DNA of 64,000 nt from Leucoraja erinacea (taxonomy: Eukaryota): positions 19,964,001 through 20,028,000 of the forward strand of contig NC_073389.1 of NCBI RefSeq assembly GCF_028641065.1, written 5' to 3'. The notes beneath the pieces are model-generated. The model was not told the origin of the DNA, searched no databases, and worked only from the letters and a program-made list of their open reading frames with translations. Shown here piece after piece: positions 981-62,036 of the stretch. A program made the position numbers and the translations under genes. Each line of letters begins with the position of its first letter. The first letter of the stretch is position 1.

Positions 981-1206
981 GTAGGAAGGAACTACGGATG
1001 CTGGCTCACACTAAAGATAGACATACAATGTTAGTGTAACTCAGCGGGTCAGGTTGCATATCTGGAAGAAAGGAATAGGTGGCGATTTGAGTCGATGTCC
1101 TTCTTATAAGACAGGGTATGAAGATGGATTTCGACCTGAAACATCACCTATTTCTTTTATCCAGAGATGTTGCCTGACCTGCTGAGTTACCTCAACATTT
1201 TATGTC
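981..1206. mobile_element. Penelope-derived fold-back element, old
   Basis: AAGGAACTACGGATGCTGG start; the left arm is the imperfect reverse complement of 1130-1206. Confidence 0.75.
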
Positions 1207-2212
1207 AGCCTTGAGAATGTGCTCTTTCTGCAATTCTGTACATATTTCATGAATGATATTTGTTGACGTGAATGCACAAATAAATCTTTACAATGATGAT
1301 GACAGAAGTGGGAAACATAGGCTTCGTCACTAATGCACCTTCTTAATACCATATTCTGAGTCTCGCTCCATACCCTCCAGAATCTCTTGTGTCCAGAAAT
1401 CTAAATCTATAATTAAATATACTCAGTGACTTGGCTTCCACTGTCTTCTGTGGTGGAGAATTTCACAGGTTCACCCTACTCTACTTGAAAATATATATCT
1501 TCATGTTGGTACTAAATGCCTTATTCCCTCTCATGAGATTCTGGAACCACAAGCCAACATAAACACCATTGTCATGTCAAAATGTTGATACAAAGAACTG
1601 CAGATGCTGGTTTACAAAGAAAGACGCAAAGTGCAGGAGTAATTTAGCAGGTCAGGCAGCATCTCTGGAGAACATGGATGGGTGACATTTTGGGTCAGGA
1701 CACTTCCTTCTGACTCAAAATATTGTATGTTTCAATGATATTGCCTCTTATTTGTCTAAATCCTGTTGAACACAGGTCTTGTCGGCCCAGCTTATCCTGA
1801 TATGGTAGTCATGCTTGGCTTGTTACATACTGCTGTATCTTTGCTGCATTCCTTCAATGGCAGCTGTAGCCAATGCAGATCAAAATGACACACAATACTT
1901 CATGGTTCATTCAGCAAGGCTGCATAATATTGGCACTTTTATTCCAACTCATTTTAATGGCCTAAGTGGTAAAACAGTTTAAATACTATAATATGTAATT
2001 CAGGCAATTGATCAAGCAGTGTGAGGGGAATTAATTGATTATTCACAGTTGATGCTGACTCATTTCATTTTTGACTCTGTATCCATTAATGTTAATTCAG
2101 TTTCATTGCCCTGTTAAGCTTAAATAACAATTTGATCCAGTAACCTTTATTGCAGGACAGACTTTCCAAGGCTGCAGATTCTGGCAAATATCGGGCCCGT
2201 TTTGAAGGATAT

Positions 2213-2446
2213 AGAAACATAGAAAATAGGTGCAGGAGAAGGTCACTTGGCCCTTCGAGTATGCACCGCCATTCATTGTGATCATGGCTGATCATTCACA
2301 ATCAGTAACCTGTGCCTGCCTTCTCCCCATATCCCTTAATTCCGCTGGCCCCTAGAGCTCTATCTAACTCTCTTTTAAATTCATTCAGTGAATTGGCCTC
2401 TACTGCCTTCTGTGGCAGAGAATTCCACAAATTCACAACTCTGGGT
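2213..2446 (-). mobile_element. HER1/CR1 LINE 3' fragment
   Basis: (TTTCTATG)n tail and the CR1 3' region GGCCAATTCACTGAATG...GGAGAAGGCAGG on the minus strand. Confidence 0.85.
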
Positions 2447-3855
2447 GATATCTCCTCCGAATTTCTGCATATCCAAAGCACGCAATGTTATGTGAACCTC
2501 TGTATTTTGGCTGTGTTTAAAAATCAATTTTTAATTTAAGTTTTACCTTAAATAAAAAAAATTAATATATTTAGAAGTGATGACTTGGTAATGTTTGATT
2601 AATGTAGCCCACATGTGTTTAATAATGAGGGATAAGCATTTTTAATAGGTGACAATTCTTCCCAATCAAAGGAAATTAATTTGAAATTGTTTACTTTTGT
2701 TTTTGTTGAATGCTGAATAAATTGAGACAAAAAATGTTTGGAAGCTCTTAAAACATATCTTTTAGTGCCCTTGCACTCAAAAGATACAACCTAATTTTTA
2801 AAGCTGCAGGTTAAAATATTGCATTCCCAGCCGTAGTGGAAACGATTGACATTCCACAGTCAACCAAACCCCGTGACACAAAATGTTGGTTTAACTCAGC
2901 GGGACAGGTGGCATCTCTGGAGAGAAGGGATAGTGATGTTTCGGGTCGAGACCCTTCTCCCTGTGACTGCAGATGTTCATTTTGACGCAGCTTTCCCCCT
3001 TCAGAAATTAGTCTGCTTTAATTGGGAAATGTAAAAGTGGTTTCTGTCTGATGTTGATTCCTTTGCTCTCCAAATGGACTGATTTCAAATATAACGAATC
3101 TTCAGTAAGGTGTAGAGAAACCTGTTTGTATAAATCAAACACCATCTGTGCTGCAACAGACAGCTTGCTTTCTTAGTGGAAATTCATTGATGCTGAGTTG
3201 GGGGGTGGGAGGGAATGGATGTGGGAAGGTGCCAAATGGATTGACAGTGTCAAACTGTTGAGTATATTATTATGTGCAGAAGCGAGGTGAGGTATAGGTA
3301 CAATAAAAAGCATTGCTTGCTGCACCATGACGGAAGTGTAGATTTGGACAACACCCAAAAACAACATTTATATGTATTTTACATATTGGCAGTAAAGAGG
3401 TAGAAAAAAAAATGCAAAAAGGGACATTAGTGCAAAACACAATTAGAAAATAAATATGTCCACAATAGTGCTTGAGGTGATCTGTGGTGTCTCATTGTCG
3501 AGATAGAGTTAGGATTATGTGGATTGATTCAAAAATTGAGAGTTGCAGGAAAATAGCTGGCACTGAATCAGGTGATGTGCAATTTCAGGCTTCTGTACCT
3601 CCTTGATGGTTGAGTTGAGTTTGAATTTAGTTTATTGACAAGTGCACTGAGGAAGAGTGAAAAGCCCAAAATGTTTGTGCTGAATATAATGCCGTTAAAC
3701 TGATCTCATCTGCCTGCACATGATCCATATCTTTCTATTCCCTGCATTTCCATGTGCCTATGAGAAAGCCTCTTCTCGGCCACTATCGTATCTGTCTCCA
3801 CATTCATCCCTAACAATGTGTTCCAGGCGCCCACTGTTCTCTGTATAAAAAAACC

Positions 3856-4135: not shown

Positions 4136-5364
4136 TTAAATGACTTACGACTATGTTATAGAGAGCATTTGCAAAATGGTATGACTTATTTCCACATAGC
4201 ATTTGTAAAAACCACTTCAAGCAATTATGTAACTTTGAATGGCACAACTTAAAATTTTCATTAAAAATTTCATCAGTTCTGCCATTTTTGATTGAATGTC
4301 AACTAAAATACCCAGGTAGTCTCGAGAAATCTCAGGCACTGTCTGGTAAACCTGAAGGTTTTTCTAAAAATGGACAATGTGAATGAGAACAAAGTATCTT
4401 AAAGTAGAGTTTGCATATCTGAAGAAGTTATGGTTTCAGTTTATGTATAGGAAGGAACTGCAGATGCTGGTTTAAATCGAAGATAGACACGAAATGCTGG
4501 AGTAACTCAGTGGAACAGTTTAGTTTAATGTTATGTAGTTTATCGGTGCGATTTCAGTCTTCTGTACCTCCTGCCTGATGGTTGAGTTTGTTGTTACGTG
4601 TTCCGAGGTACAGGGAAAAGCTTTTGTTGTGTGCCAACCAGTCAGCAGAAAGACAATACATGATTGCAATCAATTCATTTACATTGTACAGATACATGAT
4701 AAGGGAATAACGTTTAGTGCAAGGTAAAGCTTGCAAATTTCGATCAAGGATAGCCCGAGGGTCACCAAAGAGGTAAATAGCAGTTGCACACTTCTCTCTG
4801 GTTGTGGCAAGATGATTTTGCAGATAAGACATATAATTTAAGGGAATATATGCATGGGAAGTGTGAACACATTGAAAGTGTCCTTCAGGTTGTCTCTGTT
4901 TACTTATGCCATGTGTTCTTTGTAAATATATAATTAATTGCAAAACATTCAAAGGGAATCTCTTTCCTTCCCATGATGCTTCATGCCAGTTGTTTATCAA
5001 TATTCGGCTGGTGTTACATTCTTGAATCCTAAAGCTGTTTATGTTGGCAAGATAAGGTGTAGATTCGTTTCTCAAATTATCAAGTCTTTTCTTCAGTGTT
5101 CTATTACAAAGTAAAAAGAAAGGTCAACCATTTTGAAAATCAGAGGACCAGGCACCACAGCCATTCTGACACGATTTCATCACTGAACCAACACTTTAAA
5201 AAAGGATGTTGAATCAAGACTCCTTTTTCAAGTGAGCTGCATGATTTAAGTGACTTCAGGTAGTAAAGGGAAAAATAACTTTCAACATCAATTGTAATGA
5301 AAATATAGCTAGACTGTTCGATGTTGTTAAAATAAAGGCTTTTTAAAAAATAAGTCATGCACAC

Positions 5365-5662: not shown

Positions 5663-5730
5663 CCAGGTACACAATTTAATTGAATGAGCTAGTCATTTTT
5701 ACCTCTGAGTACAGTCTCATCCAAGATGTG

Positions 5731-5946
5731 TGGAAGGAACTGCAGCTGCTGCTTTATACTGAAGATAGACACAATGCTGGCGTAACTCAGTGGGTCGCCG
5801 AATCTCGAGATGAGGAATAGGTGATATTTCAGATCAGAACCCTTCTTCAGACTCTGAAGAAGGGTTCCAATGTGAAAGGTTACCTATTTCTTTTCTCCAG
5901 AGATGCTGCCTGTCCGGTTTAGTTACGCCTGAGCATTTTGTGTCTA
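5731..5946. mobile_element. Penelope-derived fold-back element with back-to-back hammerhead-like motifs
   Basis: Centre reads AACCCTTCTTCAG-ACT-CTGAAGAAGGGTT; the arms are reverse-complementary. Confidence 0.75.
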
Positions 5947-8783: not shown

Positions 8784-8865
8784 TTAAGAAAGAACTACAT
8801 GTGCTGAAAAAAATCGAAGGTAGACAAATAAGATGGAGAAACTCAGTGGGTGAGTTTCTCCAGCT
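8784..8865. mobile_element. Very short Penelope-derived fold-back insertion
   Basis: TGGAGAAACTCA-GTGGG-TGAGTTTCTCCA hairpin; direct repeat TCTATATAATAT at 8772-8783 and 8866-8877. Confidence 0.7.
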
Positions 8866-9027
8866 TCTATATAATATGTTATTTTTTCCCACTTTAGCAG
8901 CAAGTAATTGTTGTTTTATTCAGCTCGGGTGAACATGTGAATGAATCTTGTAAGAAAGTATCTTGACCAGAAATTCATCCTTCACTTTGAATTTAAAGCT
9001 TTTCTTTTAAATTTTGTAGCAAACGAA

Positions 9028-9508: not shown

Positions 9509-9662
9509 AAAATAAAGTTATAAACAAATGGAATTGGTTAAAAAAAATCGTAAATTGAAAGAGACTTTCCAAATCCCAAATGTTACAAAAACTAGAAAAA
9601 TGAAATAAAAACCGATTTGTTTCTGACCTGCTGAGAATGCCTTGATATTCTTCTCTTACTTC

Positions 9663-13017: not shown

Positions 13018-14177
13018 CTGAGGGCAAACAAACGAACGTATGAAAGATAATATTCTGCGCAATTTATTTTGATGCCGTGTGTTGTTTCATTGGCAATTTT
13101 CCCTGACTGGCCATTGGGACAGGTGATGATAATGATAATTTTCTCCGGAGATGCTGCCTGACACGCTGAGTTACTCCAGCATTTTGTGTCTATTTTTGGT
13201 GGTTATTATGTCAGCTTCATTTTCTTTGTTGACTCTTCCACCCTTCTGAATCATATGGTTTCCACTTCCTCAGCACTGAATTAGTACTGTATGTCATAAG
13301 TGATAGGAGTAGAGTAAGGTCATTCGGCCCATAAAGTCTACACCACCATTTAATCATGGCTGATCTATCTCTCTCCTAACTCTATTCTCCTGCCTTCTCT
13401 ACGTAACCTCTGACACCTGTACTAATCAAGAAGCTATCAATCTCAGCCTTAAAAATATCCACTGACTTGGCCTCCACAGCCTTCTGTGGCAAATAATTCC
13501 ACAGGTTCTCCACCGTCTGACTAAAGTCTGATTAAAGTGTGTGGTTGTTATGTAGCATGAATAATATTTTAAATATTTATATGAAGATATATTTATCAGT
13601 GATTACAACAGATGATTGGGAAATGTAATTTAAGCCATAGATTTAATATGTTTGTTTGATTTTTTTACATTAGTTTTATAAAATAGGAAATGAATAATTC
13701 ATAAAGTATTCGTAAATATCTCTGGTATCAGAGAAAAATCTAATGCATGGTAACAATGCTCATCATAATGGAAGCTGAGTATATTAACATCCTCTGCGTT
13801 GCTAACTCTCCACCAGAAGAGTTGACATTGTGTATCCTGACAGCTGATGTAAAATCTTGCACTCTGTTTCTCTCAGTGACAGCTGGTATCCCAGCTTGTC
13901 TTGTACTCCTGTCAACCCGTGCCTTGTGTGGCACTGCATCCTTTTATCTGAGAGCCCATGTTCCATTTTGTACTTAATTCCCCTGCCGACTGTGGCTTTT
14001 ATAACCTACAAGACTGCACCAACCTACTTAAAGCTTAAAAATCAATGTTAAAAGTGTCATAAATCACCAGCAGCACTGCGGAAGTTGCTGAGGATTTTGA
14101 AAAATGTCCACATTAGGTTTTGAACCTGAACAGCATTTTGACATATCCGAGATGAAATTTCACTACTAAATCTTTAC

Positions 14178-14377: not shown

Positions 14378-15035
14378 ACAGAAGAGACTGCAGATGCTGG
14401 AATCTTGAATAAAACACAGTGCCAGAGGAACTCAGCAGGCCAGGCAGCATCTGTGGAGGGAATGGACAGGCGACATTTTGGGTCAAGTCCCTTCCTTAGA
14501 CTGATGGAGTAGTGGGGAGAAAGCTGGAGAAGAGAGGTGGGGATGGAGCAAAGCCTGGCAAGTGATAGTTGGATAAAGGTGAGGGGGAGGGGTTACTGGC
14601 AGATGGGTGGAGGTAAGAGGTGGAGTTCAGACAAAAGGAAAGGAGGAATGAATTGTTAAGCTGGGTGGGGTGTATAAGTGTAGAAAAGGGACTTGAAAAA
14701 GAGGGGGGGATAAAAGGAAAAAGGAGATGGGAATGGTGGGAGATGGCGGGGGGGTTCAGGGTGACAATGGAGGTGGGAAAAACAATACGATAGAACTTTA
14801 TTTATCCCAGGAGGGAAATTAATTTGCCAACAGTCATAAAAAAAACACAAGATACATGAAACATGGAACAAATGGTGGGAGAAATATGTGCGTAGTGGGG
14901 TATTACTTGAAATTGGGGAATTCAATGTACATATTGTTGGGTTGTCAGCTCCCAAAGTAAAATATGAGGTGCTGTTCCTCCAGTTTGCAGTGGCCTCACT
15001 CTGACAATGGAGGAGGCCAAGGACAGAAAGGTTGG
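14378..15035 (-). mobile_element. Penelope-like element 3' region with a small nested insertion near 14780-14870
   Basis: 14955-15032 closely matches the GIY-YIG C-terminal coding segment at 44300-44380; it is followed by a pyrimidine-rich 3' tract and the common terminal repeat. Confidence 0.75.
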
Positions 15036-15517
15036 ATAGTTAATCAGAACGTAATGTAATCATTACAATGGTAATGACAAAGAGCTCCAGCTGACCTTGG
15101 AGAACAGGGTGTATGTGTTCAATGAAACTGTCGTCTCTTCTACCCTCTCCTCTTTTGAACATTATTGCTGATTCTGCCATTATTACATCTTTCAATGTGG
15201 TGTATTCTAAATCATAAGAACCGGTTGTGTAAAGAAAAAATCATCTTTGCTCTGTTATTTCCTTTTCCATTTATCAATTTGTTAACTGTACAAACTGTAA
15301 GACATTTAATAAGCACTTAACATTTTCTGCAATCAGTTGAGATTTTCAAGCATAGGTAGAGAATATTACACAATTAAGGGATTCACACTGTAAGAAGGAA
15401 TGCAAAATTCTTATTGAAGTTTGCAAAATAGATGGTTCATTGAATGTTTTGCATGGTGCCATTGAAATAGCAAATAATTAGCACCATTTGTCCGATATAG
15501 GCCTTGCATATGATCAG

Positions 15518-16484: not shown

Positions 16485-16784
16485 CGGCACAGTGGACCAG
16501 TGGTAGAGTTACAACCTTAAAGCGCCAGAGACTGTTGTTTGATCCTCACTACGGGTGCTATTTGTACAGAGTTTGCACATCTCCCTGTGACCTGTGTAGG
16601 TTTTCTCCCGGTGCTCCGGTTTTCTCCCGTATTCCAAAGACCTACAGGTTTGGAGGCTAATTGGCTTGGTAAGATTGTAAATTGGCCCTAGAGAGATAAT
16701 GATGGGGATAGTGCATGGGGTTCACGGTCAGTGCAAACCCCATGCACTATCCATGCTGTAACCCCAAACTAAACTAAACCAAAC
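16485..16784 (+). mobile_element. HE1-type V-SINE
   Basis: Head, V-domain and (CTAAA)n tail. Confidence 0.85.
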
Positions 16785-17189: not shown

Positions 17190-17460
17190 GATAGACACAA
17201 AAAGCTGGAGTAACTCAACAGGACAGGCAGCATCTCAATAGACAATAAGTGCAGGAGCAGGCCATTTGGCCCTTCGAGCCAGCACAGCATAGAGAAAGAA
17301 TGGGTGGCATTTTGGGTCGAAACCCTCAGCAGTCTGAAGAAGGGTATCGATCTGAAATGCCACCCATTCTTTCTCTGCAGAGATGCTGCTTGTCCCGCTG
17401 AGTTATTCCAGCATTTTGTGTCTATCTTCCGTTTAAACCAACTTCTGCGTTCCTTCATAC
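17190..17460. mobile_element. Penelope-derived fold-back element with a short CR1 tail inserted in one arm
   Basis: Reverse-complementary arms; CR1 tail at about 17236-17287; CTGAAGA...GAAA motif at 17334-17357. Confidence 0.75.
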
Positions 17461-17644
17461 ACAGCAATAAATGCAGACTTAACACCACAGAATACAAACG
17501 TTCTGTGTTTTATTCTGCCATTTTGTTATTTCCCCCAAGATGTGCTACGGTTTTATATTTTGTTATTTTGGGGGGGGGGGTTTGTGACCTCTATGTGACT
17601 AAGTGATGCATGTGACACAAAGCACCACACTATCTGTTACCATT

Positions 17645-20749: not shown

Positions 20750-21062
20750 TTAATTTAGACTTTAGACTTGATACAGTGCTGAAACAGGCCCTTTGGCCCA
20801 CCAAGTCTATGCCGACCAGCGTTCACTATGTAGACTAACACAATCCTACACACTAGGTGGGAGAATTTACAATTTTACTAAAGCCAATTAACTTACAAAC
20901 CTGTACATCATTAGTGAAAGGGCGGAAACCAAAGCATGTGGAGAAAACCCACGCAGTCACAGGGAGAAGGTACAAGCTCTGCACAGACAGCATCCATAGT
21001 GAGGATTGAACACGGGTCTCTGGCACTGTAAAACATTGGTTCTACCGCTACGCCACTATGCT
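20750..21062 (-). mobile_element. HE1-type V-SINE
   Basis: Full head-to-tail match to other copies; (CTAAAGT)n-type tail. Confidence 0.85.
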
Positions 21063-27683: not shown

Positions 27684-27710
27684 TAGACAATGCTGCATAT
27701 TGCATTGCGA

Positions 27711-28110
27711 GTGTCGAGACTCCTCTTCAGACTGAGAGTCTGGGGAGATGGAGACATAGGGATATGGAACGTAAGGTGTGACAGAGATCAAAGGGGACGA
27801 TGATCAAGGAAAATGGAGAATGGTTCATTGTTAGTTGTAGGGAAGGCAACAACAAGACATGCAATCAGTAAGATTTAATCAGGAGGACAGTGAAAGTAGT
27901 CGGAGAACTAGGATGGGGAAGGGGTTGAGAGAGAAAGGGGATGCAATGGTTACTTGAGGCGTTGGAGGTCAATATTCATACCACTGGGTTTTAAACTGTC
28001 CAAGCGAAATATGAGATGCTGATCCTCTAATTTGCACTGGGCTTCACCCTGACAGTGGAGGAGGCCCAGAACAGAAAGGTCAGTTGGGAATGGGGAGGGG
28101 GGAGTTAAAC
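27711..28110 (-). mobile_element. Penelope-like element fragment (GIY-YIG C-terminus and 3' region)
   Basis: 28000-28100 matches 44300-44400. Confidence 0.75.
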
Positions 28111-28519
28111 TGTTAAACTGCACGGCGCAGACTCAGTGGGCCGAATGGCTTATTTCCGCGCTGTATCTCTAAAGTCTCTATCTTTACCATCCCTCTTTCT
28201 ACCTTTATTGTGCCCAATCAGCGGGCATGGGGGAATTTAAAGAAATAGTATGTCCTACTAGAATGTGATTCTTGGTTTCCGAAGAAATTTCATTATAGAA
28301 CATTTCATGATATTAAAAAAACAATATGTCAATGGGGGTTAGGGGCTTGAAGGTTTCAGATTTGCAATGACAAAATAATTTCTTCAACATAAAGGTCTTT
28401 TTTATTACCTGCAACATTGTTTTGTTACTGCTAGCTAAAAATACCAAAGACTCAATGGTATATTGTTTAATGAAGTACCATTGCATTAGCGTGAATAGAA
28501 GCAATATATGTCATTTTAC

Positions 28520-30210: not shown

Positions 30211-32067
30211 TTATATCTTAAGTTGCAAAAGTATTACGTCAAGAAGCTACATCCTCAATATAGTAAACGTTACGTGTTCTAATTCTTAAATTAATATTAA
30301 TATACTTGTTGTGCAGGCTTTGATTTCTCACAAGAATGATGGTGAAGCAGCCAGCACCACACGGTGATAGACATTAGTTTTCTATGAGCTCAATTAAGGT
30401 ATCCAATCTAGTTGAATGTTCATCTCCTAACCTCTATTGGGGAAGGAGAATGCTCAAAGTTGCCCTAAAAGATCATTATTTAAAAAAATATTTAGCAGAA
30501 TGGTGGTAAAGACAACATAATTGTGGTGTCGATGAATGGAGCTGGATATGTGTGCAAATGACACTGTATAACTGCCAGGCCATTGTCTCAACAACAGTCT
30601 CACTTTTTAGTTTAATTTGGTTCAGAATAAAGCATGGAAACAGGCCCTGTGGCCCACTGAGTCCATGCCAACTACATGTTCAATGTTATCCCACTTTCCC
30701 ATCCACCCCCTGCATGTTAAGGGCAATTCAGAGGACTATTAACCTACAATCCCCCTCATTTTGGTGTGTGTAGCAACCAGATGAAGCCCATGTGGAGAAT
30801 GTGCAAACTCCCCACATGAGTGGAGATCAGGATCGATCCCGCGTCTCTGGTGCTGTGAAGAGACAGCTCTACCAACTGTGCCACAGTTACACCCTAAAGG
30901 GAACATTGAATTATCTGATTTTAAGTGATGACCCCCCCCACCTACTCCTCTCTCTTTCCTGTGCCCCCCACCCATTTCACAGTTATTCTGTGCTCCTCAT
31001 AGTGCCTTGAAATTTCATACTTAGCTTTAGCTGTCCTCTCCTTTTCCACTTTCTTAACCTCTCTATTGGTTTTTCACAAGCATCAAGCATCCTCTGTGAG
31101 GATTTGGCCTGTTTAATCTGTAGGACAGGTATTTCTCTAAAGCCTACCTATGTTAAAATAGATTGGGATTGGCAGTGCCTTGGGATAGGTTTAGTGGACG
31201 ATGACAAATCGGAATTTCTATGTTACAAGAAAAGACCCTGACCACTCGAGGCCAGCCACAAATGACCTCTGGTAGGGTGTTGCCTGGTAGGCCCATTGTT
31301 GGCTCGGGAAGGTGTGATCTCAAGAGAAACCATGTGGAGAACAGTGGAACTGGTAAAACGACTAGGAAGGAGGAAGGGGGCAAGGACATAAAGTGCTGGA
31401 GCAACTCAGCGGGTAGAATTATGGTTATTGATTAGGTTGCATGGATTTTACTGACATGCACATGCTCAAGAAGGAAGAAAGGAGTTGAACTTCACCATCC
31501 TAAACATTTCCCCTGGCTCACACCCTATTGCTTTTTAAATAGTCATTAAAGTGCCCTGTAGTTCCTCCTCGCATGAGGCAATGCTATGTTCAGTCAATTG
31601 TGTGTGTCAGCTTCAAAAGGCCTTGACCTAAGAGCTCCATGGGACTTCAATGGTAAACACATACTTGCTGCAAAAGATAGACTCAGAGTGCTGGAGTAAC
31701 TCAGCGGGTCAGATTACTTCTTTGGAGAAAAAGGATGGGTGACATTTCGGGATGGATTCCTCCTTCAGACTCATTCTTATGTACACTTGCATACCTGCTG
31801 CAAGTTTAGTTACAGTTCTTCCATTCGGAAGATGAGTTCTTACTACTTGCCATCCTAAATCATGCAAAAACAATTTTCATTTGAATGCCAAAATTGAGCG
31901 CCAGCAATCGTCTGACTCAGTTTCAGTACACAGCAGTGCTTCAGAATGAGTATAATCCTCCAAAAGCCATCCTTTCTGAGCATACACAACACTCAATGTA
32001 ACTAGGAAAAATGGACAAGGGAGAGCCAGTGGATGTGGTGTACCTGAACCTTCAGAAAGCCTTTGAT

Positions 32068-43320: not shown

Positions 43321-44185
43321 ATTGCTGCCTGTAGGCAGGAAGAAGCAGCACTGCTTATTGATCCCAGGAGGGAAATAGGTCTGCCAACAGTCATAAAAAC
43401 ATAACAAGATACACGGAACATTAACATAAAATGACAAGTGGAAAGGATTGGGGATGTGCAAAGACTGGGGGGGAGGGGGGAGGGGGGCAAATAGCTACAG
43501 GGGGAAATAATCTCCTGTGGTGTTCTGTTGCTGAAGGTGCTCCTCAGGTTGACCAGTGTGTCATGGAGGGGGTGAGCTGTACTGTCCCAGGTGTGCCACA
43601 GTTAGAGGAGCATCCTCCCCTCCAAGACCATCTCCAGTGAATCCAACTCCACTTCCAGGATGGAGCCAGCCTTCCTGATGAGCTTGTTAATTCTGTTGCC
43701 GTGTGTTTGTGTGTGTGGTGTTCTGGGCTACATCCACAACTCTCTGCACAACTCTCAGTCTTGGGCAGAGCTGTTGCCAAACCAAGCTGTGATGCATCCC
43801 AATGCGAGGCTTTTTACAGTGCATGTGCAGAGGTTGGTAAGACTCATTGGAGACAAGTTGCATCTCTTTAGTCTGAAGTCTGTCAGAGTGATTGTGAGCG
43901 TGATGCCAGGCAAACCTGGATTCTACTGTAGTGTTCCATTTGCCATCCTGCAGTCTCTGTACATGTGGATAAAGTGGAATCTTCCATTCAAATGCCTGAA
44001 TGTTGCCATATCAAGCATGATTTGATCTATCAGTTAGGTTCTAATAATAGTAGTGAATAACATTTCATGCACACCACTGTAGAGAAAACATTGTATCAGC
44101 ATGAGTCCTTCATGTAGATTTAGTTGAATAATTCCAAGAGTGAGAAGTTGCATTTGTGAAAATGGAATTGAAATAATAGGTGCGA

Positions 44186-44715
44186 AAAAGAACTGCAGAT
44201 GCTGGTTTAAATCGAAGACAGACACAAAATGCTGGAGTAACTCAGCAGGACAGGCAGCATCTCTGGAGAGAAGGAATGGGCGACGTTTTGGGTCAAGTAC
44301 CCAAGCGAAATATGAGGTGCTGTTCCTCCAATTTGCGCTGGCCTGACTCTGACAATGGAGGAGTCCCAGGACAGAAAGGTAAGATTGCGAATGGGAGGGA
44401 GATTTGAAGTGCTGAGCCACTGGGAGATCAGGTAGGTTAAGCCGGACTCAGAGTAGGTGTTCAGTGAAACGAGCGCCAAGCCTGCGCTACGGTCTTGCCG
44501 ATGTAGAGATGTTGACACCTGGAACAGCGGATACAGTAGATGCGGTTGGAGGAGGTGCAAGTGAACCTCTGTCCCACCTGGAAAGACTGTTTGGGTCCTT
44601 GGATGGAACAGTGACCCAGGAGTCTATTCCCTCCACAAATGTAGCCTGACCCGCAATGTATCTCCAACACTTTTTTTTTCTCTCCACAATATTCAGCATC
44701 TGCAGTCTCTTGTAT
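44186..44715 (-). mobile_element. Penelope-like element remnant with GIY-YIG endonuclease coding sequence and inverted ends
   Basis: Translates as QGPKQSFQVGQRFTCTSSNRIYCIRCSRCQHLYIGKT and AQHFKSPSHSQSYLSVLGLLHCQS; flanked by the terminal sequence that forms the fold-back elements. Confidence 0.85.
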
Positions 44716-46894: not shown

Positions 46895-47180
46895 TTAGTT
46901 TATTGGAAACAGGCCCCTTAGCCCACCAAGTCTGCGCAAACCAGCCGTCACCGCGTACACCCGTTCTATCCTGTACGCTAGAGACGATTTACAGAAGCAA
47001 GTTAATCGACAGACCTGCACGACTTTGGAATGTGGGAGGACACGGGAGCACCCAGAGAAAATGTACGTGGTCACAGGGAGAGCGTACAATCTCCAAAATG
47101 GAAACACCCGTAGTCAGAATGGAACCCGGTTCTCTGACGCAGTAAGGCATCAACTCTACCACTGCGCCATTGTGCCGCCC
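46895..47180 (-). mobile_element. HE1-type V-SINE
   Basis: Full head-to-tail match to other copies. Confidence 0.85.
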
Positions 47181-50100
47181 TTAAGTAATGTTTAAGATGC
47201 TGGTTTTTGTGCAAGCGAATCTGGTTATTATTGGATAGTTTGTTTTTTACATCAGATTGTATAGGTTTCATTGTGTTAAGAGATATCAAGACTTTGAAAT
47301 ACAAGTGAAATAGAGAGGAAAGAGCTAAAGCTGACCAATTAGCTGCATTGGTAACCTACATGAGAAGGATGCACGCAAATTGACCTCCTTCCATGAACCA
47401 CATTGTAATCAGATTATTGCATGAATTATGCATGATGTTTGCACGTCTGAACAGTCCCACCCAAAACATTGCCTATTCATTCCCCCCACTGTTGCTTCCT
47501 GACCTGCTGAGTTATTCCAGCCCTTTGTGTTTTGCACAATTTTGTTGTGTTGAAAATCACCACTGTGATTCCCACTATTGCTGGCTCGAGCGGCCGAATG
47601 GCCTCCTCCTGCACCTATTTTTTTATTTTCTATGTTTCTAGAACAATGGCCACAACAATTTTTTTTAAATCATTTAATTAATTGAACATGAAGAGATTTG
47701 CAAAAGTTAAATCTCTGATCTATGATTTTTTTGTTTTATGACCACCTTTCAATCTGCACTCTCCTAATGTTCCTGTTCACTGGATCATTATGCCCTGATT
47801 CCTTTTGGGATTTGCCAGTCAGGGCACTGAGTTACTTGGGCCAGATTACGAGGGGCCTTCCCATTGTTTATCTGCATCATCAAGCCTAGTAGAATAGGAT
47901 GGCAACTGGGCAGCAGGCAGTGAGAAGATTCTGTCTCTAAAATGTCCCTGGTCGAAAGCAAAGCTGAGGATAGTGGACACAAATAAATTCAAAAAAGCAG
48001 TCAAAGTAAAACAATGAAAAATAAATTACCCCAAGCTTCTGTCGACAACCATTTCTTCACTTTGGAGTCAACGTGTTTAGTGTAGGATCCAATGGATTGA
48101 TTTCCCTGCCGTAAGTTCTTGGAAAGTTATGGAAATGTCTTCCCTTGCAAGTCTCCATGCATCTTTTACCCTCTATCATTTCTTGAGAATTCAGCCCTGA
48201 TCTGAGTCCATGAAAAAAAAAATGAAGGTGCAGTTGTGTATGTATTGAAGACATGCTCCTCGTATTAACTTTCTTCATAGAATCATACTGCATGGAAATA
48301 GGCCCTTTGGCCTAACTTGCCCACGCCGACAACATGCCCCATCTACATTAGTCCCAACTGCCTGCATTTGACTCATCTCCCTCTAAAATAATCCAACCTA
48401 TGTACATGTCAAAATGTTTTTTAAACATTGTGATGGTACCTACCACAATAACCTCCTCCAGCAGCTCGTTCCATATACCTACCATCCTTTCTGTAAAAAA
48501 ATAGCACCTGAAGTTCCGATCAAATCATTCCCCCCTCGCCTTAAACTTACGTCCTCGGGTATTTGATTCCCCTACTGAGTAAAAGACTCTGTGCATTTAC
48601 CCTATCTATTCCCTATGCTATCAAACGTGTTGCAGAGGAAGGACACGCTCAATTTGAATGAACTGAATTAAGCCCAGGTTTCAGAACTTTTCCCTAATGC
48701 TTCATATTGTAAAAGTGAATTCAAATATAATAATTAAACAAAGTGCAGTGATGGTAATGTCAGGGTTATGCACACCCATGCATCATTGCATTTCAAGTAG
48801 AAAGGCTAGGTGATTTGCTTTAATGTTTGTGAATGTAAAACCAAAATTATGCTTCGTATGCTGAAAGATCATTTGTTTTGTTTCGGTATTTCACCCACAT
48901 TGTGTGGAAAGAGAGTGATTAATTGAAACTTAGGTGGCGAATGTCACCTTAAGGCCCCTTGACATATTTTATTAGCGACAGAAATGTATTCAGTTCATTT
49001 TCTGTATTGCTGGTAATGTTGCTAAGATGATCCTCCATTGCACTTGATAAGCTATTTCCATTCAGAAGGTGGCCCATCATCCCAATCTAAGATAATAAAA
49101 CAGTTTGCTGCATTGACTAGTGCCTATTATTGTGTGAACCGTAAAATGAGCTGTCTACAATAGTGTTATGAATTTTAACAGTATGAAATAAAGGTTGAAA
49201 TTAGGTTGGAACGGTGTGAAATATAGTTTTTGAGGGTTAGGTGGCACAATTTGCTGCTGTGAATAAATAGTGGGGATTTTACTTCAAATAACATCAAACT
49301 TTTGGTTGAACAAAGTTCACAGGGAAAATTTTGTGCAATTCAAAGATTTAGTCAACCAGTATACATTGAAAAAGGGGCAACTTAGCCTCGAACTGTTAGT
49401 TCCCAAGGACTCCTAAAAGGGACATATTTTTATAAAATGATCTTGTAGCTATCAAACGGACTCAGTTTGGAGCCTTCAAATTTCTGAATACAAAGTAATT
49501 TGAACTCCTCACCCAGGATTTTCTGTCCAGCACTTTCAATGCATGCCTTGAAGGAGTGTTATTTTCCATGAGTGTCATCTTTTAAATGACATATTAAAAG
49601 TAAGATGCCACCTAAAACAACTGATCATTTATCTTGCCCATACAGTAATTGGAGTACATTGCTCCAATGAAAAACCGTAAATCTATTTAACCTCTTCATT
49701 ATTGTGTAACTATGATGTACATCTGAGTGACGAGGGGGCCAGAAGTATAAAGGTAAGGTTTTCTCCACTTAATCCACCAAAAACAACTTTAGTTTGAATC
49801 TTGATCTATCCTGAATTAGCAGGGCACTGGGTGGAAATTAGGAAGTAGAATTTAGGAGGATTCATTTTTTGTACCGCTGTCTAACAACTGTTGCTGGAAT
49901 TTGTTTAGTCAGAGGGTCATAGAACCGTAGAGTGATACAGTGTGTAAACAGGCCCTTCGACCCAACTTGCCCACACCGGCTACACTAGTCCCACTTGCCT
50001 GTGCTTGGTCCATATCCCTCCAAACCTGTCCTATCCATGTACCTGTCTAACTGTTTCTTTAGGTGAATCTGTGGATTCATTGCTACAGACGGCTTTCGAG

Positions 50101-52018
50101 GCCAACTATTTGGTTAGTTTTAAAGGGGAGATTGTAGGGTTGATGATTAGTAAGGGAGAAGGCAGGAGAATGGGGTTGAGAGGGAAAGATAGATCAGTCA
50201 TGATTGAATGGTGGAGTAGACTCAAAGAGCCGAATGGCCTAATTCTGCTCCAATGATTTATGAACATGCTGGGTTGTGCATATTTCAGATAGAGGGGGAG
50301 TTTGCTTTGTGCTACACCCTTAAATTTATTGTCACTCTCAGTCCAGGCTGATGAATGAAGATTACACGAAAGGTAATAATTTAACATTCCCTCTTTCAGA
50401 AGTGGCCCAATTTTCTCCAAAGCAAATCTAAAAGCACAGCAGTGCCTTGGGCAGAAATAAATGAAAATGCTTTGTTCTTGTGAACAGAAGTGAAACATTT
50501 CCTCACTGGGAAAATGTTAGTAAAGGTCACAGGACAAATCTGTCACCCATTTTCTTTGATTTGGACTGATGTGTCTTGTGCTGGTAGTTGAATTAGAAAG
50601 AGATGAGTTTGAAGTCGTCAAGAGTGTTTTATTGTCATATGTCCCAAAACGGAACAATGAAATTCCTACTTGCCGCAGCACAGATATGGAAACATAGCAC
50701 TCTGTAAAATCCATATATTTTTTTAAAAGTTTAGTGCATATGTATAAAATAGACAGACAAATAAATTAACTATGATAGTGCAAAGTCAAAAATAATGAGT
50801 CTATTTAGGTCAGAGCCGATTTGGAGGTTGTAGTGTTTAATAGCCTGGTTGTTGGGAAGAAGCTGTTCCTGAATCAGGATGTTACAGTTTTCAGACTCCT
50901 ATAACTTCTTCCCAATGGCAGGAGTGAAGAGTACATGGCCAGGGTGGTGTGGGTCTCTGATGATGCTGGCTGCCTTTGTGAGGCAGAGACTCTTGTCGAT
51001 CCCTTCAATGGTGCGTGGTTTTCTGCTTGAGTGTTTGCAATAAGCGCTCGGAACACGTATTGCAAAAATGTGTTACTGTTGCTGAAGTGTTCACATCCTT
51101 GAAAATCAAAACAAAGCTCATTATAATTTCAAGCCAATGTCTATAGTCCTCTTAGGAGTGATGGACTGGGCAGTGTTCATCACCTTTTGCAAACAGGGAG
51201 TACAACTTTTAATTAAGGAAATAAAACATTCACCTGCTTAATATCATTCCTGTATCTTTTTCCTGCTTTTATTGAACCAAAATGTAAATTCCTCTCTGTC
51301 ATTGTCCTCTTCTGCATGTCAGGGATGTTTTTTTTTTAATGTTTGCAACAAGCGTTCGGGACATGGATTGCAAAATTGTGCTCCTCTTGCTGAAGTGTCC
51401 ACTTCCATTCAAATCAAAACCACAACTCTCATTATAATTTCAAACCGCTGTTTATAGTCCTCTTATGAGTGATTGATGCAACTTAAATTTTGACAAGTAT
51501 TGCAATCTTGACCTTTTTTTATCTAAGGAAATGGCAAAATTACCAAGTCAGCATATTTGAATTATTAAAATAGATTCAACAATTCATTTCACATTGTCAA
51601 TGCCTGGCAGTAACTCCTGAGAATAAAGCTTCAGTGAGATTAATTAGGGGTTAAATTAATGATATTAATTGAATTAATTAGGGGCGGCACACTGGTGCAG
51701 TGGTAGGTTTGCTGCCTTACAGCAACAGATTCCCACATTCGATCCTGACTACGGGTGCAGTCTTTACGGAGTTTGGAAGTTCTCCATGTGACCCCGTGGG
51801 TTTTCTCTGGGAGCTGCGGTTTCCTCCCACATTCTAAAGCCATTTAAAAGCTTTGCAGCCAGGAGAAATCACCCAGAAGGCATCTTGCTCTCCAAACTAT
51901 GCACGTCAAAATGTACTCATTTGCAATGCTCCGACATTTGAATTGAAGGATGAAAAGCATCTGAGATAGCTGGATCTTCTTTAAAGGGAAACTTAATGTG
52001 CAATCCTTTCAAGTATTT

Positions 52019-52052: not shown

Positions 52053-52054
<2 letters not shown>

Positions 52055-53190
52055 TTTTCTCATTGCTGCATTAGTATCTGATCTAAATTTCCAAAATTGT
52101 CCATAATTTTTCTGGTGAATTGTACTGGCAGATGGTTGCAAGTGACTGAGATATTTGCACTGAATGACCTTCATTTGATGAAAAGGAGATGTTTTTGATG
52201 AAAATCTCATTTCACTAAGTAAATGCCAGCTGAAGTACAGAGTGTTTTTCCACAACAATATTGCTATTATCTCTCAGATGAAAACTAATCATGTGGTTTA
52301 TTTGCTTCAGTCTCCCTCCTGTAATGACTTCCAGGTACATTTTTAGCACAGACATAAAATGCTGGAGTAACTCAGCGGGTCAGGTAGCATCTCTGGAGAA
52401 ATGGAACAGGTGATCTTTTAGGTCGGAACCCTTCTTCTTTCAGTCTGAGGAAGGGATTGTTCCAAAAAAATAAGTCAGGGCATCAATCTCAAATATTACA
52501 TTTATATTACAAAGTAAAATTACATTCTATAATATTACCATTATCGTTGGCTGAATTTGCAGGTTGCAACAGAAAAGAACAAAGTCTACGGAAACAGAAT
52601 ATTGCGACAAGCAAATGTCTCCATTACTTTTCCACAAAAGGCTGACTAATAGTGTTTTTCTATTCATCTCCAACCTCTGACCACTATTTGCATAATGAAG
52701 TGTAGAAAAGCCAATTTATTTTAAATTAAGAATCTGTGCAAATAAACCGTACGTGATCTACAGTTCAATGAGTCAGTGAAACACGCAAATTTACTTCTTA
52801 GTGCAACGCAGTAGAAAGAAACATAGTTGAAAGCTATCTTTTTTTTTAATATGTTAAACAGGAAACCCCATTTACTATAATATTACCATATTTAAAATGA
52901 TAAAATGCCCAGCCAAAACAAAAACACTGCTTTTCTGTCTTTTTCATAACAAATCTCTCTGCCAAAGCTGATTCGAGCAATTTTAAGTTGATTAGGGCTC
53001 GATAAGAATATGGTTCATTAAAAATCATTGCTATTTTTAAAATTAAAATGTTTTTTTTTCATATCCTATTAACAATGTAATGCGTAGGAAGGAGCTGCAG
53101 GTGCTGCTTTAAAGCGAAGATAAGCACAAAATGCTGGAGTAGGACAGGCAGCATCAGCAGGACAGGCAGCATCTCTGGAGAGAAGGAGTG

Positions 53191-53224
53191 GGTGACATTT
53201 CGGATTGAGACCGTTCTTCAGACT
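53191..53224 (-). ncRNA. Degenerate minimal type I hammerhead ribozyme motif within a Penelope terminal repeat
   Basis: Minus strand reads AGU-CUGAAGA-A-CGGUCUCAAUCC-GAAA-UGUC-ACC: core and GUC cleavage site intact, stem II decayed. Confidence 0.5.
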
Positions 53225-53509
53225 GTCTATCAAACAATGTAATGCCTCTAACGTTGAGGAAGACTGCAGATTTGAGAAGCAAAACTTTTTTTTGTGTGAG
53301 GTGCTTATTGAGTATTTGGAAGACGAATATTTTAATTTGTTGTTACCGGTCCTCAAATGTGGCAAATACTTTCATAGCAATTCAATTTTCCAATTTGTTT
53401 TCCAGTAACCTGTTCCGCCACATTTGTCCATCATCTCCCCCTCTTATTCCTCACGCCTTCCTTCACAGTGTGTCTTTTATAACAGCCAATTAAAATACTA
53501 AACCATATT

Positions 53510-55774: not shown

Positions 55775-56076
55775 GGGTGGCCCAGTAGCGCAGTGGTAGA
55801 GCTGCTGCCTCACAGCGCCAGAGACCCAGGTTCGATCGTCACTTTGGAAACTGTCTGTATGGAGTTTCTACATTCTCCCTGTGACCATGTGGGCTTGCTC
55901 CAGGTGCTCTAGTTTCCTTCCACATTCCAAAAAAGTGCAGGTTTGGAGGTTAATTGGCTTCTGTAAATTGTCCCTGGTTTGTAGGATAGAATTAGTGTAT
56001 GGGTGATTGCAGGTCAGTGTGGACTTGGTGGGCCCAAGGGCCTATATCCACGGTGTATCTCGCGACTAAACTAAAC
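55775..56076 (+). mobile_element. HE1-type V-SINE
   Basis: Head with GGTTCGATC, V-domain and tail. Confidence 0.9.
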
Positions 56077-57324: not shown

Positions 57325-57450
57325 TTCAAGAAGGAACTGCAGATGCTGGAAGATCGAAGGTACACAAAATTGCTGGAGAAACTCAGCGGGTGCAGCAGCA
57401 TCTATGATGCTGCTGCACCCGCTGAGTTTCTCCAGCAATTTTGTGTACCT
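57325..57450. mobile_element. Young Penelope-derived hairpin insertion
   Basis: Perfect 45-bp arms (57358-57402 and 57406-57450) with a TAT loop; 15-bp direct repeat CTACAACAGTAGATG at 57310-57324 and 57449-57463. Confidence 0.9.
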
Positions 57451-58370
57451 ACAACAGTAGATGATGGGGCAGAGTCAAACTTAGGGGTGTGGCTCATAGT
57501 TTCATGAAGGTGGTAACCAGGTATGAAGTAGGTATTGACTTGCTTGCCTTACTTGCTCCTGTTTGTTTACGGTCTAAAGATTTAGCAGTGTTTTTTTTTA
57601 AATAGCCACTTCACATATTTCTCACCATCTCCCTGCTTTGCTGGCTTTGTTCTCAGCCGGCAGTATTTTTTCCCTTTCAGAGCTCTGAGAAGGCGCTCTA
57701 TTAGTGAATAGAGAACAATGAACAAACAGACTTAGACAGATGCATAATTAGGGTTGAGTTACACAACCTCTCTCGGGTTCATTCTTAGTTCACTGAAAAC
57801 ATGAATAGCATGGAGTTTATATGTGGGGCATTGTAACTGCAGACATCACCTCGTAGTTTTCTGTGCTACATTATAAAAATAACAATCAAACGACCATGAA
57901 GTGTATTATTCCTCAACAAGACCATTGCTCAATGTAATCTGTATTCTTCACTCGGAGGGTGACGCAATGCAGTGAAATTGACAGGAGTCCAAAACCCAGT
58001 AATTACATTAACCGTACAAAACATGTTCCAGAATTCTTTAGAGATATTTTTAGTTAAGCAGATTAGTGAAAAATATGCCTCTTAAAATGAGTGAATACGG
58101 ATGTGGCTTCAGGTATTCCTATAAAGTGTCTTGTTGGTTGGAGGTTCCTGAATTGCAAATTACTAACAATTTGCACAGTGGGCGGCAGAGTGACGCAGCT
58201 ATAGAGCTGCTGCCTGGGACCAGGGTTTGATCCTGACTAAGAGTGTTGCTGTACGTAGTTTGTACATTCTCCCTTTAACTTTGTGGATTTCCTTCGGGTG
58301 CTCTGGTTTCCTCCCAGTTCCAAAGATATGTAGGTTTGTCGGTTCATTGGCTTCTGTAAATAGGATAGAA

Positions 58371-59424: not shown

Positions 59425-61074
59425 GGCTGTGGGCCGAGCATCAAAATGTGTCGAGAAATCAACTTTTGTGACCCCTGTCTCGGAACCACATGAAATTTTG
59501 CACAGATTTAGATAAAATATAATTGAAAAGGAAGTCACAACTCGTCAGTGCCAAAAGTTGCACATTAAATAATTAAACTAATTAGAAAATGAGATTTGAA
59601 AAAAGTAAGCCCCGTCTAGTGTCCAATGCCCATATTATACCAAGGGGAGCCTATTTCCGTGTTGCAGTCTATTTAAACCATATATTATTATACCATGTAA
59701 ATATATATATATTATATATAATAATAATAAATACTTTATTAATCCCCTTTTCAGGGGAAATTCAGATGTCCTTGCAGCATACTAATAAAAAATACAACAT
59801 AGTATTAAAGAAGAAGTTTAACATTAAAACATAAAAACATCCCCCCACAATGGTTCCCACTGTGGGGGGAGGCACAAAGTCCAGTCCCCATCCTCTTGTC
59901 CACCCATGGTCAGGCCTATTGAGGCCTCCACAGTCGCCGCCACGGAGGCCCAATGTTTCAGGCCCTCTCACCAGGTGGTGGTGCTCCGGCATCGGGAGAA
60001 CCGTCTCAGCGGCTTGGGGTGCCTGGAACGGCCGCTTCCTTACTGGAGACCGCGGCTTCCAAGCTAACAGGCCGTGCTGGATGGAGTTTCACCACTGGCG
60101 ATCTTGGCAGGAGATCCCAGGCTCCCGATGTAAAGTTCAGTGCCGCCGCCCGCAGCTGGCGCTCCACAGACCTGCAGCTCCGCGATGTTTAATCGGCAGT
60201 TCCCAGCATACCGGAGTAACAGCGCGGCGAGCCAGGCAAGGCATCGCCCGCTCCACAATAGCGCTCCAGTGCTGTGCCGCCGCCGAAGCCGAGGTTCTGG
60301 CCAGGTCCCCTCAGGAAACGCCACTCCATGCCCCGCTGGTAGGCCGCGAGGACGGGTCGAAGGTGCTGCTCAGAGGAAGGCAGCCTCTCCGACCAGGTAG
60401 GGACTTGAAAAAGCAGTTTCCCCCTTACCCCCCCCCCCCCCCCCCACACATAAAAAGATTAGACCCCCAACTACACACTTTAACGTACTAAAAATAATAA
60501 AAAAGAAGTGAAAAAAACGGACAGCTGCAGGACTGGCAGCCATACAGGACGGCGCCCCTTCTCCTGTGCATGTGTGTGTGTGTGACTTGTGAATATGACT
60601 GTAATCATATATAATTATATATAATATATTATATAAAAATAATAATGAATATAATTGTGAGTGTGTTTTTTGAATGAGACTGCCGCAGAGGTCCAGCTCC
60701 TGAACCAGCCGAATGAATGGGTGAGGGCAGTTCCTGTGGGTTCCCCTGTTTACTAAACCTGACTGACTGCCATTGTCCAGAGTGGGGGTCATAGCCATAG
60801 TGGGATTGGGGCAGTGCCAGTACCTAGCGACCATAAAACAAAGCGCGGGATTGGTCAATTTGCGTCCGACCTCAATGTCAAACGTGCATTGATTGGGCAA
60901 TTATTACTCTGAAAATTTGAGGTTTTTCTCATATTTTAAAAAAATGTGCAGGCTTTGGTCTTGACGAGTTTCAGGTATGATTTATATAATATTTTTACAC
61001 AATATGTTACAAATTCAGGTAGTTCCGTGAGTTGGGTCACCATCTTCAACGAAAAAGCTCCTCGGCCCACAGCC
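59425..61074. mobile_element. Non-autonomous DNA transposon with long imperfect terminal inverted repeats; superfamily unresolved
   Basis: Perfect 14-bp termini GGCTGTGGGCCGAG / CTCGGCCCACAGCC plus further inverted subterminal blocks. Confidence 0.75.
59718..60560 (-). mobile_element. GC-rich non-coding retroposon with a Rex1/Babar-like tail, nested in the DNA transposon
   Basis: Minus strand ends GGGGATTAATAAAGTATT(TAT)n; no recognisable coding frame. Confidence 0.55.
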
Positions 61075-61554
61075 AAGCAGTGAATGCCTGAAATTTCTGA
61101 TTTAAATTTTTAAATAAGAATGCCTCAAATTGAAGAAATAATTCATTCTTCAGTTAACATTTCCCTTCAACAACGTGATATGTAATATCCAATTTTCCAA
61201 TACTGAAAATTAACAATTAGAAAAGTTTCATTGTCTCACTAAATATTCAATTGTTCATTTATTATCACATGCATCAGGTACAGTGAAATTCATTTTTTTG
61301 CATACAGATCAGTAAGATTATTGCCATACATACAGTAAGTGCATAATATATATTATGTACATAACTATTACTGTTTAATCTTGTTAATTTTTCTTAGTAC
61401 TTATTCCAGCCTTTCCTTCCATTTTTTTATCCATCCAAGATTTGATTCACTTTAATATGTATTTTCTGTCCTTTGCCGTGAACTGTTTATTTCACTATCT
61501 TAAAATCCAATTTGTTAAGGATAATGATATTCGCTTGGAGCTTGCAACTAATAA

Positions 61555-62036
61555 TTGCACAGCAGTAAAGTTGCTGCCTGACAGTGCCAGAGACACGGAT
61601 TTGATCCTGACTACAGGTGCTGCCTATCCAGAATTTGTATGTTCTCCTTGTGACTGCGTGGGTTTTCCCCAGGTGCTCCGGTTTCCACCCACATTCCAAA
61701 GACGTACAGGTTTGTAGGTTTAAGAGGGAACTGCAGATGCTGGAGAATCGAAGGTTACACAAAAAAGCTGGAGAAACTCAGCGGGTGCAGCAGCATCTAT
61801 GGAGCGAAGGAGAAAAAAAAAATTTCCTTCGCTCCATAGATGCTGCTGCACCCGCTGAGTTTCTCCAGCTTTTTTTGTGTAACCCAGGTTTGTAGGTTAA
61901 TTGGCTTCGGTAAAAATTGTAAATTGTCCCGAGCGGGTGTAGGATCGTGCTAGTGTGCGGGGATTACTGGTCAGCGCGGACTCGGTGGGCCCAACGTTCT
62001 GTTTCTACGCTGTATCTCTAAACTAAACTGAACTAA
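61555..62036 (+). mobile_element. HE1-type V-SINE hosting a hairpin insertion
   Basis: The SINE is restored when 61721-61884 and one repeat copy are removed. Confidence 0.9.
61721..61884. mobile_element. Young Penelope-derived hairpin insertion
   Basis: About 59-bp arms (61753-61811 and 61825-61884, one homopolymer indel) with an A-rich loop; 14-bp target-site duplication CAGGTTTGTAGGTT at 61707-61720 and 61885-61898. Confidence 0.9.

Follow-up and report, generated by a model that had tools for sequence, protein, structure and literature searches.

Likely tail ends of a Penelope-like retrotransposon, solo and as fold-backs, with a decaying minimal hammerhead motif in a 64-kb stretch of the Leucoraja erinacea genome

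Background

Inverted pseudo-long terminal repeats (pLTRs), tails, target-site duplications (TSDs), minimal hammerhead ribozymes on opposite strands, solo hammerhead motifs across genomes and minimal hammerheads in fish elements have all been published for Penelope-like elements (PLEs). The canonical insertion unit of endonuclease-positive (EN+) PLEs consists of head-to-head inverted copies with palindromic junctions, an optional tail on one arm, a TSD round the unit and heavy 5' truncation (PMC3846280, PMC8557442). Here we report on a stretch of 64,000 nt from Leucoraja erinacea (assembly GCF_028641065.1, contig NC_073389.1, positions 19,964,001 to 20,028,000; hereafter the window), in which a short repeat, the terminus, with remnants of a hammerhead recurs as single arms or as inverted pairs of arms. 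The window loci share all of these canonical features and differ in that most units consist of the terminus only, at 100-135 nt per arm and one unit per 3 kb, and in their TSDs of 11-17 bp versus 8-10 bp in the rotifer EN+ PLE examples of those papers.

We propose, with a probability of roughly 85%, that these loci are decayed 100-135 nt tail ends (pLTR plus an optional 35-nt tail) of PLEs, inserted one by one through endonuclease-primed reverse transcription, that about half received a mirror-image arm from the same insertion, and that the hammerhead within them is decaying. This is ordinary as a discovery, and its value lies in the material: with a scar every 3 kb, the genome supplies a very large sample of insertion ends bearing on what PLE hammerheads do.

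Results

The terminus was first located in the window by BLAST and nhmmer with one copy as query, and arms were then counted with a profile hidden Markov model (HMM) built from 14 of them. The model returned 32 arm matches belonging to 21 loci (E 1e-34 to 7e-4; Table 1), which cover 4.5% of window bases, and 0 arm matches in the reversed window used as control. An initial annotation of this DNA had estimated about 20 copies with a common terminus at roughly one per 3 kb. Both estimates hold: all 18 positions that it named carry the terminus by BLAST, nhmmer and the HMM, three more loci begin at 13138, 31385 and 47457, and the measured density is one locus per 3.05 kb.

Two inverted arms are present at 10 of the 21 loci, nine being pure fold-backs and the tenth (44184-44714) enclosing a piece of GIY-YIG coding sequence, and the 3' ends face outward in 10/10. 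The remaining 11 loci are single-armed, one of them (52344) bearing a 16-nt inverted stub seen by eye, and tandem, head-to-tail arms occur at none of the 21. Hammerhead sequence is absent from six loci (4448, 8784, 13138, 31385, 57326 and 61722), which include the two youngest fold-backs, 57326 and 61722. The earlier description of the loci as ribozyme-bearing, self-complementary retro-insertions is sound as regards retro-insertion and otherwise overstated, about half being single-armed, 6/21 lacking the motif and only 1/21 fitting a hammerhead descriptor, with a core that decays neutrally.

In the window, arms terminate at either of two 3' ends separated by about 35 nt. Relatives' reads and contigs were collected from four runs by comparison with window positions 17322-17470 at 80% likeness, a filter that favours younger copies; a poly(A) RNA run from a related organism contributed 8433 of its 7,335,232 records and a DNA run 68,186 contigs, and two DNA raw-read runs contributed 0 reads. 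The same two 3' ends, at 17427-29 and about 17464, appear in these records. Their spacing matches the 30-40 bp tail of published PLEs (PMC8557442, PMC3846280), which has been tied in vitro, for an anole element, to two internal start sites of reverse transcriptase (RT; PMC11167929).

TSDs were scored at 20 loci (the 30-nt fragment at 31385 being excluded) against 380 mismatched flank pairs. Duplications of 11-17 bp reach the cut-off score of at least 10 at 7/20 loci versus 4/380 controls, and at 17184, 57326 and 61722 they surround the entire fold-back. The centres of the fold-backs vary by locus among the 10 compared, which argues against a distinct family of mobile fold-back elements. At 57326, 61722 and 24895 private variants are common to the locus's own two arms, which points to a single source molecule more than to two independent RNAs. 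Identity between the arms of older pairs ranges from 64 to 84%, and just one pair clearly exceeds the level seen among other copies; continuing homogenisation of arms at older loci was considered and rejected, since their arm pairs are mostly no more alike than unrelated copies. A strict rule of one long and one short arm was likewise dropped, as it holds at 6/10 loci, the chance level. Relatives' reads that span fold-back centres are sparse (8 reads at one centre).

A metagenome scan with a gapped core pattern gave 77 loci, none of them from the family of the skate window. Stem II has at least 4 bp in 27 of the 77, and 10 of these 27 (two pairs being near-duplicates) have an inverted upstream copy that includes the hammerhead; the presence of such copies in unrelated animal families indicates that the layout is general. 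Unrelated animal minimal hammerheads were seen at L003, L013, L023, L039, L042, L044, L049, L038, L020, L022 and L052, several with inverted upstream arms. PLE coding homology lies near four of them. GIY-YIG sits between the arms of L003 (352-1385), and the motif of L013 is preceded upstream by RT and GIY-YIG. L042 turns within stem II.

The link to PLE coding sequence had first been placed at 44300-44605, where the terminus flanks GIY-YIG. The GIY-YIG sequence, at 44296-44607 (-), is real, but it is frameshifted and its junction is not the natural one; at 44296 it lacks both the 3' untranslated region (UTR) and the 5' half of the hammerhead, which marks the junction as secondary. The piece finds 362 proteins at E up to 0.001 and aligns to a Penelope-type protein of Stegostoma tigrinum with identities of 24/38 and 18/30; Pfam GIY-YIG alone gives E 0.12 on a 48-aa piece, and a homologue search with a 59-aa piece found nothing. 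Longer named relatives, from S. tigrinum and Chiloscyllium punctatum, have RT motifs, a cysteine linker and GIY-YIG. No PLE RT was seen in the window, while the closest named relatives carry one, together with the cysteine-rich linker between RT and endonuclease, just past whose position the 44296-44607 fragment begins. Such a linker points to Neptune or Nematis (PMC3846280, PMC8557442), and the source was likely a Neptune-type PLE.

The natural order of GIY-YIG C-terminus, pyrimidine-rich UTR and hammerhead is preserved at 14378-15040 and 27690-28126. The former runs on into the shared terminus (second subfamily) and the latter represents a sister family. The complete end at 14378-15040, with GIY-YIG, 3'UTR, hammerhead and tail, bears out the Penelope origin claimed at the outset, and the sequences as a whole speak for that origin, for retro-insertion and for a minimal type I hammerhead in the ancestor. 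In the sister copy (-) a 6-bp hairpin spans the start of the hammerhead core at its 5' edge, and stem II is compensated. A weak tblastn match to a Penelope-type protein at 48269-48430 (+; E 6e-4) is possibly another old fragment. In viral contigs the motif pattern had 0 matches and protein alignment confirmed 0/56.

Combining copies, the initial annotation had arrived at the motif AGU-CUGAAGA-A-GGGU-CUCG-ACCC-GAAA-CGUC-ACC. It is the column majority of the window copies once one CpG is restored, and no artefact of cherry-picking. At the five positions where the 17322-17470 copy deviates, the majority letters of the relative's RNA run (17346, 2508/2758, 91%; 17351, 2558/2852, 90%; 17353, 2122/2864, 74%; 17358, 2348/3242, 72%; 17360, 2948/3264, 90%) restore this motif letter for letter. 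The window majority holds both core boxes, the extra A, a 4-bp stem II with G10.1-C11.1 and the cleavage triplet, and the palindromic CG of stem III shows as a mixture of CG, TG and CA typical of CpG decay. With CUGANGA, GAAA and NUH boxes, extra base, G10.1-C11.1 and palindromic stem III found in window columns and the relative's reads, the ancestral family motif is real and, judged on sequence, fits the minimal type I hammerhead consensus of PMC4209133.

Stem I comprises 2 bp followed by a mismatch, shorter than the 4-5 bp expected of a minimal type I hammerhead; stems I of 0-3 bp also occur in the 27 paired metagenome motifs, and a 2-bp helix I has been reported in Drosophila virilis (PMC4209133). 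Stem II shows no clear covariation inside the main family among window copies; one compensated pair is found in the sister copy 27700-27731, and 22 distinct stem II sequences occur across unrelated metagenome families, a set pre-selected for pairing. An Rfam scan of the window yielded 11 matches at E up to 1, none of them to a hammerhead family, and its hairpin, miRNA and psbJ matches (57359-57449, 61769-61867) lie under gathering scores, reflect palindromes and were set aside. In a nearest-neighbour model the restored motif forms an active dimer of -6.1 versus a best inactive dimer of -21.1 kcal/mol, in agreement with the weak activity reported for such motifs. The ribozyme of the source element would need dimerisation and probably protein help.

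A relaxed minimal-hammerhead descriptor matches the window once, at 5812-5853 (-), with 0.07 matches expected (30 shuffles). The initial annotation considered no single copy a perfect ribozyme; most copies are indeed broken, and this one does fit the relaxed descriptor. Two copies credited with an intact core are not intact ribozymes, the cleavage triplet being broken at 17331-17364 and the first stem II pair at 53191-53224; the intact stem II at 2934-2958 (-) is confirmed, in a locus (2874-2961) whose core is damaged. The C11.1-G12 dinucleotide is kept in 3/20 arms. Across all 32 arms, CpG retention is 16/60 inside the hammerhead vs 20/56 outside (p 0.32), and non-CpG core positions are changed in 22/172 cases vs 271/1617 elsewhere (p 0.19). 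The hammerhead has likely decayed neutrally since insertion, leaving the genomic copies dead. Folding still gives a long hairpin for each of the nine pure fold-backs (z -5 to -29 against mononucleotide shuffles), so any ribozyme inside them would be buried.

Inner ends were read by eye in 31 arms. Ten of them lie within -2..+4 of the A before the hammerhead core (binomial p 0.0009 vs a uniform distribution over 67 nt, the interval having been picked after seeing the data), and at most 1/31 lies within 3 nt of the cleavage site. Among arms that reach the 5' edge of the ribozyme, only 14498 continues into 3'UTR. In the metagenome loci, the unselected inverted arm ends near the hammerhead 5' edge in 6/8 distinct cases (by eye). 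Ends at the ribozyme 5' edge, with hardly any at the cleavage site, make the templates look uncut.

In the relative's RNA run, 540 reads clipped at 17361 run on into hammerhead sequence and so derive from uncut RNA. The check proposed initially, for RNA-seq ends after GUC, came out negative: in this fragmented poly(A) library, which makes for a weak test, there is no pile-up at the cleavage site and no position where many molecules begin or end. The 149-nt terminus (17322-17470) is present in about 0.11% of the relative's poly(A) records, equally on both strands, and is a potentially large source of double-stranded RNA; the hairpins could be such a source in these animals.

Other mobile elements share the window. 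An uninterrupted 533-aa RT frame at 39590-41188 (-; Pfam RVT_1, E 1e-33) is apparently young and belongs to what we take, from its motifs, to be a CR1-like long interspersed nuclear element (LINE). A second, broken LINE RT follows at 41486-43601 (-; RVT_1, E 3.5e-26), presumably of Rex1/L2 type, with a Pfam ALKBH8_N-like match in its C-terminal part. Broken fragments resembling a long terminal repeat retrotransposon lie at 22728-24123 (-; DUF7041, E 6e-8; integrase-like C-terminus by eye), and a 120-nt inverted repeat (34460-34579 / 34949-35068, 84%) flanks LINE RT sequence, possibly because a LINE was inverted at its 5' end on insertion. Another dense family of repeats, about 200 nt long and resembling short interspersed nuclear elements, occurs on both strands (569-794, 16495-16700, 20849-21074, 30010-30235, 33826-34010, 46956-47189, 51673-51859, 55775-55999, 61551-61720), and the fold-back at 61722 is inserted within one of its copies. 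The left arm of the 17184-17462 fold-back is split at 17250-17298 by a short piece of a different repeat that seems to have inserted later, with a short duplication.

Table 1. Loci with the terminus and related PLE sequences in the window
Coordinates	Strand	Feature	Remarks
981..1214		Fold-back, tailed arm (-) and short arm (+)	Centre at hammerhead 5' edge; both motifs decayed
1588..1716	-	Solo tailed arm	Begins at hammerhead 5' edge; 11-bp TSD, one mismatch
2874..2961	-	Solo short arm	Stem II intact, core damaged
4448..4518	-	Solo tailed arm, truncated	No hammerhead
5731..5952		Fold-back, tailed arm (-) and short arm (+)	Junction at hammerhead 5' edge
5812..5853	-	Sole copy fitting relaxed descriptor	Wobble stem II, 2-bp stem I, self-complementary stem III; monomer does not fold into hammerhead
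8784..8868	-	Solo tailed arm, minor variant	No hammerhead; TSD ~15 bp
11215..11362		Fold-back, two short arms	Asymmetric centre with microhomology
13138..13200	+	Solo short arm	No hammerhead
14378..15040	-	Natural PLE 3' end, second subfamily	Broken GIY-YIG C-terminus, pyrimidine-rich 3'UTR, decayed hammerhead (~14471-14502), terminus, tail
17184..17462		Fold-back, short arm (-) and tailed arm (+)	TSD ~15 bp encloses whole unit; short arm split by fragment of another repeat
24895..25076		Fold-back	Asymmetric centre; private variants common to both arms
27690..28126	-	3' end of sister PLE family	GIY-YIG C-terminus, 3'UTR, decayed hammerhead; end near (TAT)n tract
31385..31414	-	Terminus fragment, 30 nt	
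31668..31772	-	Solo short arm	Begins at hammerhead 5' edge; 14-bp TSD, one mismatch
35937..36128		Fold-back	Centre within stem II
44184..44714		Composite	Main-subfamily tailed arm 44184-44301 (-), frameshifted GIY-YIG 44296-44607 (-), inverted second-subfamily tailed arm 44606-44714 (+)
45332..45506		Fold-back, two short arms	Internal deletion in left hammerhead
47457..47536	+	Solo short arm, second subfamily	Partial hammerhead
52344..52456	-	Short arm and 16-nt inverted stub	Turns on odd palindrome at hammerhead 5' edge
53085..53228	-	Solo tailed arm	Begins at hammerhead 5' edge; 13-bp TSD; first stem II pair broken
57326..57451		Young fold-back	Arms identical at 41/41 shared columns; 15-bp TSD; no hammerhead
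61722..61889		Young fold-back	Arms identical at 54/54 shared columns; 15-bp TSD; inside another repeat; no hammerhead

Discussion

Under the insertion model that we favour, the GIY-YIG nuclease would nick the target, and RT would initiate at either of two internal sites (about 97 or 132 nt downstream from the first base of the ribozyme), comparable to the behaviour of the anole element in vitro. Synthesis would mostly end prematurely, in many cases where a short palindrome or hairpin is built into the ribozyme 5' edge; there the cDNA may fold back or switch template, so that one source molecule supplies both arms in a single event. Self-priming at palindromic junctions has been proposed before (PMC3846280). 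Several observations weigh against this model. The arms of 44184-44714 come from two subfamilies, and at 24895 the arm that reaches further inward is not clearly longer outward, both of which fit a simple snap-back poorly. Thirteen of the 20 loci have no clear TSD. The main subfamily is tied to coding sequence only indirectly, through a consensus of loose ends upstream of 17330 in relatives' reads that gives a similar pyrimidine tract with low agreement (0.4), and the searches turned up no full-length RT-GIY-YIG element of this family (none among the 77 metagenome loci). The neutrality tests, on 32 arms, have low power, with the core slightly and non-significantly better kept.

The second arm could also arise by twin priming, whereby the enzyme, acting as a dimer, would nick both strands of the target and extend them on two separate RNAs, the cDNAs then being joined by microhomology. 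The anole enzyme does cleave and extend both strands and has been modelled as a dimer (PMC11167929), and the outward-facing 3' ends of all ten two-armed loci and the different subfamilies of the arms at 44187 and 44606 speak for such a route. The private variants shared by the arms within 57326, 61722 and 24895 count against it, the 44184-44714 composite may be two separate insertions given its lack of a clear TSD, and self-priming is the published interpretation (PMC3846280); we consider twin priming unlikely. The high density of loci, the TSDs enclosing whole fold-backs and the strong hairpins (z -5 to -29) would also suit a non-autonomous family similar to miniature inverted-repeat transposable elements or retrozymes, amplified as hairpin units with the hammerhead processing or circularising the RNA, and non-LTR retrozymes have been reported as PLE derivatives, in one chondrichthyan among others (10.64898/2026.07.22.740005). 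Yet every locus has its own centre, the 10 compared have no common internal sequence or length, copies at the 21 loci are inverted or solo and never tandem, the two youngest fold-backs lack the hammerhead, and RNA ends in the relative's poly(A) reads are not piled at the cut site. We rejected such a unit family on the absence of tandem arms and the differing centres, and give it very little credence.

It is scarcely more probable that the host keeps the copies as functional cis-elements, whether as self-cleaving sites or as double-stranded triggers of editing or silencing in transcripts. Among 7.34 million poly(A) records from a relative, 8433 carry the terminus, the hairpins are still strong and the copy at 5812-5853 fits the descriptor. 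Against this, core, CpGs and arm pairing show no excess conservation, first mates in the relative's RNA run are evenly split between strands, and Pfam recognised no host exon among the 128 of 198 window open reading frames scanned. Insertion of PLE tail ends one by one, with fold-back in the same event, remains our preferred explanation.

The clustering of inner ends at the ribozyme edge invites two readings, under either of which our observations suggest that templates are uncut, as in vitro (PMC11167929). The insertions might be a fossil record of the start of the template RNA, which would begin at the first base of the ribozyme and, left uncut, be copied from internal priming sites 97 or 132 nt downstream, an upstream hairpin keeping the read-through (3') ribozyme off. 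An RNA starting at that base would account for the 2-bp stem I, and internal priming would mass-produce mini-copies of 100-135 nt. The edge sequence TCAGT resembles the Pol II initiator. Internal TATA-less promoters and initiator-like motifs have been reported for PLEs (PMC2377424, PMC3846280). We put forward this start-site reading tentatively and regard it as rather doubtful. Stalling and fold-back at the odd palindrome or small hairpin located there fits the clustering as well, and agrees with the published pLTR palindromes; the edge hairpin has 6 bp in the 27696-27750 copy, with a z of -1.0 versus shuffles that is not significant.

Two further candidates at this edge were rejected. A downstream promoter element (4/5 letters at +28..+32 by the usual consensus) is too weak to count. 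A splice acceptor, with pyrimidine tract and CAG before the core as in the D. virilis intron, finds no common upstream exon in the window copies, and the top RNA loose end among those listed is 17330. Should ends prove to cluster at the ribozyme start and not at the cut site genome-wide, this would lend in vivo support to uncut RNA as the insertion template; and if the start-site reading is true, hundreds of thousands of shark and ray scars test in vivo whether PLE hammerheads define the template end.

Conclusions

The window motif resembles the minimal hammerheads of PMC4209133 in its core boxes, the extra base before stem II, G10.1-C11.1, the palindromic 15.2-16.2 and the lack of a loop 3; there, too, copies are mostly solo and truncated, and opposite-strand pairs 100-700 bp apart are described. 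It differs in having a stem II of 4 bp and a stem I of 2 bp, versus 7-8 and 4-5 bp in Schistosoma, and the two supplementary files of that paper that were searched hold no shark entry. Compared with Neptune-clade PLEs, linker and RT are not preserved in the window. PAc, the Poseidon element of Anolis carolinensis (PMC11167929), likewise has two 3' ends that define a tail downstream of the hammerhead and no RNA-seq ends at the cut site, but it belongs to a different clade; its open reading frame starts inside the hammerhead.

In the open-licence literature (repeat databases lay outside the search), no paper by title addresses this family or the clustering at the 5' edge, and the available parts of PMC8969392 and PMC6431247 hold nothing contrary to the reading of the loci as EN+ PLE insertion units. 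Like the non-LTR retrozymes (10.64898/2026.07.22.740005), the window loci are non-coding, PLE-derived and associated with a type I hammerhead, whereas retrozymes are head-to-tail tandem units with intact hammerheads and the window loci occur singly or inverted, most of them broken. As far as their features could be tested, the loci are truncated insertion units of an EN+ PLE, with the architecture published for this class.

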